DNA of 32,000 bases from Candidatus Jordarchaeales archaeon (GTDB lineage: Archaea; Asgardarchaeota; Jordiarchaeia; Jordiarchaeales; Freyrarchaeaceae), in assembly GCA_038858525.1 (NCBI GenBank), contig JAWCFL010000001.1:90001-122000 (forward strand), written 5' to 3'. The translations under genes and the position numbers were made by a program. A model generated the notes under the pieces. That model was not told the DNA's origin. It was given only the letters and a program-made list of their open reading frames with translations, and ran no database searches. Of the stretch, positions 9,711 through 20,130 are shown in pieces. Each line of letters opens with the position of its first letter. Within the stretch, counting starts at the first letter, position 1.

Positions 9711-10511
9711 TTAGGGAAGCGAGAACCTGTTGGCCACAAATCGTGTAAAGTCCGTTTTTGTGAGGATTCCTATGAGGCGGCCTTCTTTGTTTACTACTGG
9801 GGACGCCTTAATTTTTTCTTTGACGAACTTCTCAACGGCAGCGCTTATCTTTTCGTCGGGATGCAGGGGTGATATTTTCTTCATTACATTTGAAACTTCT
9901 ATTTGTTTTATGCGTGTCATCTGATATTTCTCCGGAACGCTGTCACGAAACTCAGCTAGATATCTTGCAATCATGCCTTCAGTTATTAGTCCGACAAGTC
10001 TTCCTTCCTCGATAACGGGCAGACTGCTTATCTTTTTTTCGAGCATTATACGTCTCGCATTGGTTATTCTTTCATATGGAGGTATTGTTATCGGGTTAGG
10101 GGTCATAAGTTGTGATACCGTGACGTTTTTCACCTTTGAGCATAATTTGGTCATCGTAGACTTTGTGACAAGTCCCACAAGTTCCTCCTTATCCACGACT
10201 GGGAGACCCGAAATTCTTTTCTCCAGCATGATTCTTGCTGCGTCTACGATGTCCGATTCAGGGGGAACAGTTATCGGGTTAAGAGTCATCGCGCTTGAAA
10301 CATGTATGCTGGATGCTTGAAGAGCTCCTAACCTGCTCGAACCTAATCTGTCAAGTATATCTCTTTCGGTTAATACCCCAATGAGTCTTCCTTCGTTAAG
10401 TACCAAGAGACGCGAAACCCTGTTCTTTACCATGAGGTCTATTGCGAAGGAAAGAGATGCGTCTTTGTCTATAACTATAAGGTCCTTCGTCATAACCTCT
10501 TTAACTAACAA
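9711..10511 (-). CDS. Protein with four CBS domains
   Basis: Four repeats of the VxEVMT...I..LPV...LVGI(L/V)T pattern. Confidence 0.92.
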   Translation of the reverse strand: MLVKEVMTKDLIVIDKDASLSFAIDLMVKNRVSRLLVLNEGRLIGVLTERDILDRLGSSRLGALQASSIHVSSAMTLNPITVPPESDIVDAARIMLEKRISGLPVVDKEELVGLVTKSTMTKLCSKVKNVTVSQLMTPNPITIPPYERITNARRIMLEKKISSLPVIEEGRLVGLITEGMIARYLAEFRDSVPEKYQMTRIKQIEVSNVMKKISPLHPDEKISAAVEKFVKEKIKASPVVNKEGRLIGILTKTDFTRFVANRFSLP

Positions 10512-19722: not shown

Positions 19723-19835
19723 TTATTGTTCCTCCTATTGAAAAAGGAAACTTAATGAGCGGAATAATTCACTTGAAAGGACGAAAAGAAAAAAGAATAA
19801 ATAACCTTTAGTCCGAAAGCTCTCTTAGGCAACGT

Positions 19836-20030
19836 GGGGGCGTGGTCTAGGTATCGGTGGCTTGCCCTCCGATAGGAGAACTTGGTATGAACCCGATAGG
19901 TGCTCTCCTACCGGGGTGCAATACCCTCAAAGAGGGGCGTGAGTCCTGCCTGGGGCGCAGAGCAGTGTAGAACCACTTTCTGCACTGCTAGCGTAAGCGG
20001 TCCCGAGTTCAAGTCTCGGCGCCCCCACCA
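19836..20030 (+). tRNA. tRNA-Pro(GGG) with four non-canonical introns: 15/16 (19851-19880), 24/25 (19891-19921), 25/26 (19923-19943), 42/43 (19961-19996); CCA encoded
   Basis: Removing 30+31+21+36 nt leaves 74 nt plus CCA: GGGGGCG TG GTCT AGCTTGGTA TGAT T CCTGC CTGGGGC GCAGG CGGTC CCGAG TTCAAGT CTCGG CGCCCCC A; every intron folds as a hairpin. The third intron's boundary could slide by 1-3 nt. Confidence 0.9.
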
Positions 20031-20130
20031 AATTCAGAATTTTCGCGTTTTGACAAGGAAATTCTTTAAAGGAAAATTTTAAAGTGGACTTGGTAGGAGT
20101 TAGCTTAAAGAGGTTACGTGGTGAATTATT

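Follow-up and report, generated by a model that had tools for sequence, protein, structure and literature searches.

The tRNA-Pro(GGG) gene of a Candidatus Jordarchaeales archaeon (assembly GCA_038858525.1, contig JAWCFL010000001.1), found in a stretch of 32,000 nucleotides (nt) at positions 90,001 to 122,000 (G000:C1:90001-122000; this whole stretch is referred to below as the window), presents four introns, of which the second and the third are separated by an exon of a single nucleotide, U25. We consider it probable that the gene is explained by this anatomy together with splicing motifs of introns 2 and 3 that exclude one another and splicing that is likely to be ordered. The notion that splicing passes obligatorily through a one-nucleotide exon was put forward in an original prediction made by reading the sequence alone, and the analysis below considers which parts of it are upheld when relatives, a paralogue and the splicing motifs are taken into account.

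By reading the sequence, the gene spans window positions 19836-20030 on the forward strand, with GGGGGCG at its start and CGCCCCC-A-CCA at its end. These ends form the two strands of the acceptor stem (GGGGGCG / CGCCCCC), followed by an A and an encoded CCA. The T arm (CCGAG-TTCAAGT-CTCGG) is intact, and the anticodon arm reads CCTGC-CTGGGGC-GCAG..G. Once the four introns are removed, the product is a 77-nt tRNA-Pro(GGG) cloverleaf (ARAGORN score 118.6) with an acceptor stem of 7 base pairs (bp) and with D, anticodon and T arms of standard size. Its D stem, GUCU/UGAU, is made of G10-U25, U11-A24, C12-G23 and U13.U22, and the D loop has 9 nt, including G18 and G19. Among the conserved tRNA elements, U8, A14, G18 G19, U33, G37, the UUCAAGU T-loop, A73 and the encoded CCA are all present, and U26 is also read. 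The gene had been predicted to be a tRNA-Pro(GGG) gene with four introns, 118 of its 192 nt being intronic; the product of splicing is indeed called tRNA-Pro(ggg) by ARAGORN, and the intron lengths (30+31+21+36) are confirmed, 192 nt being the gene before its CCA. It should be noted that ARAGORN scores do not separate the products of alternative anatomies, and the choice of anatomy rests on homology and on counts of the motifs, called bulge-helix-bulge (BHB), in which archaeal tRNA introns are cut.

The boundaries of introns 2 and 3 are set by genes in which one or both are missing. Our orthologues included the family members G001, G002, G003 and G004, the Freyarchaeia-family genomes G005, G006, G008 and G010 and a metagenome variant, L057; the resulting alignment (A2) holds 10 sequences, nine of which contain intron 3. 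Pattern scans of the genome collection and of metagenomes yielded only one new sequence variant. G002, which belongs to the same genus, lacks exactly positions 19923-19943 and reads ...AAT|TCCTGCC, a sequence that results from this placement of the gap only. In 15 genomes of another Asgard family and in G145, the tRNA-Pro(GGG) gene reads a contiguous GGTATGAT, one base (G or A) and then CCTGCC. Within the same genome, the paralogue tRNA-Pro(UGG) (G000:C1:76214-76357) shows TGAT without interruption and, right after it, a 21-nt intron at 25/26 with the same TATG helix. From G002, the distant relatives and the UGG paralogue it follows that U22-G23-A24-U25 is the 3' strand of the D stem, that T19922 is U25 and that T19944 is U26. 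The assignment of T19922 as the only base between introns 2 and 3, at position 25, is thus fixed by genes without these introns and with no recourse to splicing motifs, and here the original prediction stands. The T19922 column is invariant in 10 of 10 orthologues from two families. As expected of a gene under purifying selection, exons are 97-100% identical across five family members, as compared with 65-82% for introns, and a 13-nt core of exon 4, in the anticodon arm, is kept in 24 tRNA-Pro(GGG) genes of other Asgard genomes, representing five families. We therefore regard an anatomy of four introns with a one-nucleotide exon as very likely. The exons and introns are listed in Table 1, together with the other features discussed below.

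Table 1 Features of the tRNA-Pro(GGG) gene, its surroundings and the splicing enzymes of the host. Positions are those of the window unless a contig is given.
Feature	Position	Strand	Description
Exon 1	19836..19850	+	5' strand of acceptor stem, U8 G9, 5' strand of D stem (GUCU), A14 G15; identical in five family members
Intron 1	19851..19880	+	30 nt, position 15/16, in D-loop; relaxed BHB
Exon 2	19881..19890	+	10 nt: C16 U17 U17a G18 G19 U20 A21 U22 G23 A24
Intron 2	19891..19921	+	31 nt, position 24/25; self-contained HBh' motif
Exon 3	19922..19922	+	single T (U25), pairs with G10 in D stem
Intron 3	19923..19943	+	21 nt, position 25/26; canonical hBHBh' only once intron 2 is gone
Exon 4	19944..19960	+	17 nt: U26, CCUGC, loop CU-GGG-GC, G39 C40 A41 G42
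Intron 4	19961..19996	+	36 nt, position 42/43
Exon 5	19997..20030	+	G43, variable loop CGGUC, T arm, 3' strand of acceptor stem, A73, encoded CCA
A/T-rich box GAATAAATAAC	19795..19805	+	about 31-41 nt upstream of mature 5' end; putative archaeal promoter element (TATA box/B recognition element, TATA/BRE)
Two T4 runs	20041..20052	+	candidate oligo-T terminator, just 3' of the gene
EndA catalytic-domain gene	G000:C3:81835-82089	-	PF01974
EndA catalytic-domain gene	G000:C43:5978-6235	+	PF01974
RtcB gene	G000:C1:35280-36587	-	494 amino acids; one match in G000, 601.5 bits

Splicing motifs were scored according to the Marck-Grosjean geometry, in which exon bases -6..-3 of the 5' site pair with intron bases -6..-3 of the 3' site in a central helix, flanked by 3-nt bulges that are cut after their second base, by an inner helix (h') and by an outer helix (h). 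A motif was called strict when all four central pairs were formed and a flanking helix had at least 2 bp. Exon 2 contains the exon strands of two of the central helices, namely GUAU (19885-88) for intron 2 and UAUG (19886-89) for intron 3. Intron 2 has a full central helix, GTAT with GTGC (19916-19), bulges GA|A and AA|T and an h' of 4 bp (CCCG/CGGG); this motif is reproduced by the local minimum free energy fold and is the same whether or not intron 3 is there. With intron 2 removed, intron 3 likewise shows four of four central pairs, TATG with CGTG (19938-41), with bulges AT|A and AG|T, an h' of 4 bp and an h of 2 bp. With intron 2 still present, the same 3' strand meets TGCA, giving three of four pairs with an A.C mismatch next to the bulge, the same bulges, an h' of 4 bp and an h of 3 bp. 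The motifs that had been quoted for introns 2 and 3 are thus exactly as found in the sequence. Intron 4 has a complete central helix (GCGC/GCGT) with bulges AG|A and AA|G, and a 6-bp inner hairpin (GCAGTG/CACTGC) that is offset by 2 nt, such that the strict definition of a stacked BHB is not satisfied. Strict motifs occur for only 0.9% of arbitrary (start, end) pairs in the gene and for 0.7% in shuffled sequences, and so their presence at boundaries fixed by homology is not a chance effect.

For intron 1, the length of 30 nt holds and the placement is refined: the register 19851-19880 fits better, with three of four central pairs between GTCT and GGAG, an inner helix of 6 bp (TATCGG/CCGATA) and the bulges AG|G and AA|C. 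We prefer this register because it makes the mature tRNAs of four relatives (G001, G002, G003 and G004) identical (77/77). It also has the best motif of the registers compared, with an inner helix of 6-9 bp across relatives, the motifs of 19852-19881 and 19853-19882 being weaker. The same 15/16 register is chosen by tRNAscan-SE for the Freyarchaeia orthologue and is used by the UGG paralogue.

Other ways of dividing the segment around T19922 were considered as well. An exon of 2 nt, with intron 3 at 19924-19944, gives at most three of four central pairs and no inner helix in all eight orthologues tested, in line with the earlier expectation that such an exon would lack a good BHB. A single intron of 53 nt with no exon in between (19891-19943) would leave a tRNA without nucleotide 26, its GTAT/CGTG pairing amounts to none of four pairs, and it is absent from the strict candidates. 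Abutting introns with G19943 or A19891 as base 25 yield motifs with three of four pairs, a mismatch with G10 and a variable base 25. We also enumerated every solution of one or two introns that reduces the segment to 1-3 retained bases, using a crude score of our own. The two-intron solution with a one-nucleotide exon ranked first or tied first in all four Jordarchaeia-family orthologues and came no more than 1 point below the best in those of Freyarchaeia, where its competitor has a motif of only three of four pairs and would give a variable A or G at position 25.

The sequence changes among orthologues bear on the state of the RNA in which each motif is formed. The central helix of intron 2 is paired in 40 of 40 cells (10 orthologues), with GC to GU changes and UA and UG replacing each other, and its inner helix has one covarying pair (UA in five, GC in four and GU in one). 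For intron 3, pairing with exon UAUG, as found after intron 2 is spliced out, is seen in 32 of 36 cells (88.9%); the closing G:C is paired in nine of nine sequences, and the pair beside it alternates between U:A (4) and U:G (4). Pairing with the 3' end of intron 2, as would be needed beforehand, is seen in 19 of 36 cells (52.8%), and the pair next to the 5' bulge is formed in none of nine. Where the intron strand varies between G and A, pairing with the U of UAUG is kept, while with the pre-splicing partner the variation results in C:G or in a C.A mismatch. The inner helix of intron 3 is 100% paired and includes two covarying pairs. In its strict canonical form, the intron 3 motif is found in none of eight orthologues before removal of intron 2 and in five of eight after it. 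This is the pattern predicted for a canonical motif that uses exon bases upstream of intron 2. A relaxed motif does exist in the unspliced state, however, and the need for iterative removal that is described for closely spaced tRNA introns may not be absolute here.

In the mechanism that we propose, a precursor of about 195 nt carrying BHB introns at 15/16, 24/25, 25/26 and 42/43 would be processed by EndA, which would excise the introns, and by RtcB, which would ligate the exons. The 24/25 intron would be recognized through its own complete motif, exon GUAU with GUGC at the intron 3' end. The 25/26 intron would rely on exon UAUG, shifted by one base, together with its own 3' CGUG, and would require A24 and U25 to be adjacent in the 5' bulge. 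As intron 2 would interrupt this bulge between its first base, A24, and its second, U25, the UAUG/CGUG arrangement could not arise before the 24/25 intron is excised and its flanks are ligated. The five exon bases GUAUG (19885-19889) would be used twice, as GUAU for intron 2 and then as UAUG for intron 3. Since both motifs need the same nucleotides, a single RNA molecule cannot show both at once, and even the relaxed motif that intron 3 can form before splicing excludes the intron 2 motif, as its outer helix takes up the GGG of the intron 2 inner helix. With the motifs exclusive, cleavage at the 3' end of intron 2 would not coincide with cleavage at the 5' end of intron 3, and U25 would stay covalently attached to a large fragment throughout. 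U25 would then never be freed as a mononucleotide, and the most likely order would be 24/25, then 25/26. If the anatomy is right, it is close to certain that the removal of introns 2 and 3 takes place in separate steps. The strict order, 24/25 before 25/26, is the best-supported reading, and we hold it with somewhat better than even confidence. Whether the one-nucleotide exon has been kept across both families under the protection of such hard-wired ordered splicing, the second motif being created by the first ligation, is a proposal for which we consider the chances to be evenly balanced.

Several points weigh against a strict order and need to be considered. In G000, the relaxed motif of intron 3 before splicing combines three of four central pairs with an outer helix of 3 bp and an inner helix of 4 bp; our crude score ties the two splicing orders in G000, G001 and G003; and four of the nine orthologues with intron 3 keep only three of four central pairs even with intron 2 gone. 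A strict hBHBh' motif for the one-step excision of 52 nt, 19892-19943, is also present in the unspliced RNA. The intron 1 motif is only a relaxed one, with a boundary that is uncertain by +/-1 nt. Folding does not settle the order: RNAfold of the whole molecule, at 37 and 70 C, gives the BHB helices probabilities of 0-0.46, and local folds reproduce these helices in some species only. More generally, expression, cleavage sites and splicing order are all matters that we infer from sequence, as opposed to the anatomy, the boundaries, their conservation, the covariation and the presence of the enzymes, which can be read directly. The original prediction of obligatory sequential splicing is thus retained in part: the canonical BHB of intron 3 is indeed incomplete until intron 2 is excised and its flanks are ligated, while an obligatory order is not established, given the relaxed motif available to intron 3 beforehand and the 52-nt motif.

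The alternative that survives best shares the anatomy but has no fixed order, as the endonuclease may remove intron 3 first through the relaxed motif, only simultaneous cutting being barred. Intron 3 removed first would still yield the correct tRNA. Across the orthologues, the unspliced intron 3 offers one to three of four central pairs, correct 3-nt bulges, an outer helix of 3-4 bp and an inner helix of 4-10 bp, the intron 2 motif does not depend on the presence of intron 3, and the two orders tie in score in three orthologues. Two EndA paralogues suggest an enzyme of the heterotetrameric type, reported to cut relaxed motifs, and intron 1 of the very same gene must be cut through a motif with three of four pairs. 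Set against this are the pairing frequencies given above (52.8% before and 88.9% after removal of intron 2, with the bulge-adjacent pair at zero of nine) and the G/A variation, which leaves pairing intact only when the partner is the U of UAUG. Moreover, the outer helix of the unspliced motif needs the GGG of the intron 2 inner helix and has to compete with a local hairpin of 4-9 bp. On balance, we find a free order unlikely, at roughly one chance in a handful, and continue to favor removal of intron 2 before intron 3.

Far less probable is the joint removal of introns 2 and 3 as one 52-nt intron, which would place A19891 at position 25 and make T19922 intronic. Its motif (UAUG/CGUG with four of four central pairs, bulges AA|C and AG|U, and h' and h of 2 bp each) is strict in the unspliced gene, and the equivalent solution is the best single-intron option in every orthologue. 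The product would, however, oppose G10 with A25 in G000 and G005 or with G25 in the others, that is, in most relatives, so that this base would vary among close relatives with otherwise identical exons. We considered the 52-nt motif to be an off-pathway competitor because every uninterrupted relative and the paralogue have U25, because the intron 2 motif (40 of 40 cells) and T19922 are conserved, which a 52-nt intron leaves unexplained, and because G002, in which intron 2 remains by itself and with this same motif, reads U25 U26. In addition, its 2-bp inner helix must displace the hairpins that both introns form on their own. Least likely of all, hardly to be entertained, is a decaying or non-functional gene with unspliced junk insertions for introns: although standard tools miss or misread the gene, its exons are conserved at 97-100% as compared with 65-82% for the introns, the intron helices show compensatory and neutral changes, the architecture is kept across two families, an upstream A/T box is conserved and CCA is encoded, the gene is the only tRNA-Pro(GGG) found in the assembly, and nearly all tRNA genes of the clade are interrupted.

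The distribution of the two introns allows a history to be suggested. The 24/25 intron was found only in the Jordarchaeia and Freyarchaeia families. A 25/26 intron with a UAUG exon strand is also present in the UGG paralogue and, by reading, in the distant Asgard genome G018, and the 25/26 site in Asgard tRNA-Pro appears to be either repeatedly used or ancient. In the simplest history, the 25/26 intron would be the older one, an ancestor shared by the two families would have acquired the 24/25 intron within the 5' bulge of the 25/26 motif, and a precise loss of the 25/26 intron would have followed later in G002. A BLAST search of the four introns against their own genome gave no convincing paralogues, a match on contig C13 lying in apparent coding sequence.

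The tRNA-Pro(GGG) gene of G018 (L047, G018:C199 ~10303-10315, minus strand) carries its intron right after UGAU (25/26), together with introns in the D-loop, the anticodon stem and the T-loop. The UGG paralogue is located outside the window, ~33.5 kb upstream of tRNA-Pro(GGG), and was not found by ARAGORN. It has three introns, in the D-loop at 15/16 (with the same AG|A..AA|C motif design), at 25/26 (21 nt) and in the T-loop, and none at 24/25. The Freyarchaeia-family orthologues (L006, L007, L008, L009 and L057) have five, at 15/16, 24/25, 25/26, the canonical 37/38 and, 28-29 nt long, in the T-loop; one such locus is L009:1400-1617 of G006 (CP147778.1, genome positions 1798836-1799053). The intron that interrupts the anticodon arm on its 3' side is found at 42/43 in the Jordarchaeia family, at 37/38 in the Freyarchaeia family and at about 39/40 in another Asgard family, as seen when window positions 19961-19996 are compared with L009, L006 and L021-L035. 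Its flanks look related (CGCAG and CGGAG), which suggests either intron sliding or independent gains.

Several BHB introns per gene, at non-canonical positions, are known from Thermoproteales tRNA genes, for which the summary of Sugahara et al. 2008 and Fujishima et al. 2010 in PMC8450103 states a maximum of three. The same tRNAscan-SE 2.0 paper notes that some archaeal introns are so close that the first must be removed before the second BHB can form. As far as that summary goes, the gene described here resembles the Thermoproteales genes in its multiple non-canonical BHB introns, in their close spacing and in a probable heterotetramer-type EndA, which would tolerate relaxed motifs. It differs in having four introns, and five in the Freyarchaeia orthologue, in the distance of one nt between two of them, with five exon bases serving both central helices, and in the lack of paralogues of its introns elsewhere in the genome. 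This last feature agrees with a preprint (bioRxiv 10.64898/2026.10.13.758758) in which the tRNA genes of Asgard archaea, in contrast to Thermoproteales, were found not to have introns in common, and which also reports up to five intervening sequences per Asgard tRNA gene. For the same clade, it has been published that 92-95% of tRNA genes contain introns, that four-intron tRNA genes occur in Freyarchaeia and Atabeyarchaeia and that D-arm introns are systematically missed by tRNAscan-SE (PMC11291895; bioRxiv 10.64898/2026.10.13.758758). The start of the Freyarchaeia orthologue, 1798836, is the published coordinate of tRNA #21, Pro GGG, in the CP147778.1 genome. This entry lists three introns and an Infernal score of 40.6 (PMC11291895; bioRxiv 10.64898/2026.10.13.758758), an annotation that leaves a 135-nt 'mature' RNA still containing both the 24/25 and the 25/26 introns. 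Heavily interrupted tRNAs are thus common to these papers and to our analysis, while a one-nt exon, tandem introns and the order of splicing are not mentioned in them.

Removal of BHB introns in a preferred order has been described for multi-intron and permuted pre-tRNAs of Cyanidioschyzon merolae, based on reverse transcription PCR of intermediates (Soma et al. 2013, PMC3728597). In this eukaryote the introns are well separated, the BHBs fold independently and the order tracks motif stability or position, whereas here the introns are one nt apart and the order would come from the overlap of motifs. A single-base exon between two introns, overlooked by annotation, is described for placozoan mitochondrial cox1 (PMC5436844); as cox1 is a protein-coding mitochondrial mRNA, unlike the protein-spliced BHB introns of tRNA, this serves as an analogy only. 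Our literature searches for a 1-nt tRNA exon, for tandem tRNA introns and for Jordarchaeia tRNA introns returned no report, although an older Thermoproteales example with very close introns is possible, and a one-nucleotide tRNA exon appears to be previously undescribed. Asgard tRNA genes with four to five introns and ordered formation of BHBs are already known; what appears to be new is the one-nt exon between adjacent introns.

If the anatomy is correct, no exon of an enzymatically spliced tRNA could be smaller than U25, which would set the lower limit of exon size for tRNA splicing by EndA and RtcB at one nucleotide. As a free exon of 1 nt could not be held for ligation, such an arrangement can work only when cuts are made one intron at a time. 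If the order is also correct, EndA and RtcB, a pathway made of proteins only, would here carry out recursive splicing that is obligatory, and would do so in the archaea most closely related to eukaryotes. The gene offers a clean natural case in which to study the coupling of cleavage to ligation and the choice that the endonuclease makes when BHBs compete. It also shows why current annotation under-counts Asgard tRNA introns, as with the 135-nt 'mature' tRNA of the Freyarchaeia orthologue, and that censuses based on alignments would merge tandem introns into a single insertion. Further to this, the UGG paralogue with the 25/26 intron alone, the two families with both introns and G002 with the 24/25 intron alone form a series of intron gain and loss that can be called dated. 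The general picture of interrupted Asgard tRNA genes, already published, is unchanged.

The host is an Asgard archaeon of the Jordarchaeia/Freyarchaeia group, described as coming from a hot spring, and belongs to a clade of heavily interrupted tRNA genes. Its assembly, G000, has 2.09 Mb in 63 contigs, with 47% G+C. Relatives include Candidatus Jordarchaeia archaeon QC4 and Candidatus Jordarchaeum sp. LHC_1308 in the same genus and, in the same order, CP147778.1, the complete genome of Candidatus Freyarchaeota SRVP19. As needed for BHB splicing, the host encodes both a splicing endonuclease and the RtcB ligase. PF01974 is matched twice, at 110.7 and 80.6 bits, in open frames of 193 and 198 amino acids, and, judging from this gene count only, the endonuclease is probably heterotetrameric (alpha-beta) and of broad specificity, a type of archaeal enzyme reported in the literature to cleave relaxed BHB motifs.

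The gene is located in a gap of 408 nt between a UDP-glucose/GDP-mannose dehydrogenase gene on the reverse strand and a histone-deacetylase-family gene on the forward strand, both unrelated to it. The A/T box of Table 1 recurs at equal distance in G001 (GGATAAATAAC), G003 (GAATAAATAAG) and G002 (AGATAAATAGC), and the box is a candidate promoter element. The T4 runs are a candidate terminator by analogy with the general behavior of archaeal terminators. On the unspliced window, ARAGORN with default settings gave no tRNA at 19836-20030, and Rfam at gathering thresholds gave no match to the gene. In intron mode, ARAGORN misread it as tRNA-Leu with a single intron of 105 nt. With permissive thresholds, the Rfam tmRNA model aligned to exactly 19836-20030, but only through its acceptor and T-arm part, and is thus informative for the gene ends only. 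A custom scan for an acceptor stem with a T arm returned this locus as the sole candidate within the window, and no second tRNA-Pro(GGG) gene was found in the assembly, whose completeness is 92.7%; an 'intronless tRNA-Pro(ggg)' that ARAGORN reported on contig C27 is a false positive of poor structure. A search of G000 for a tRNA-Pro(CGG) with the same D-arm motif, covering that motif only, found none. Over the whole 2.09 Mb, the intron mode of ARAGORN listed only 11 tRNA candidates, some of them wrong. Its 'Pro cgg' call on contig C21 appears to be a multi-intron gene that was modelled wrongly and that has a long variable arm. Finally, two database titles differ from the groupings obtained here: G004 (JAPDJY010000008.1), titled 'Thermoproteota archaeon S9B3_HD70', groups in the Jordarchaeia family and has the same tRNA architecture, and DXJA01000453.1, titled 'Candidatus Jordarchaeum madagascariense EB_bin_7', groups with the Freyarchaeia genus.

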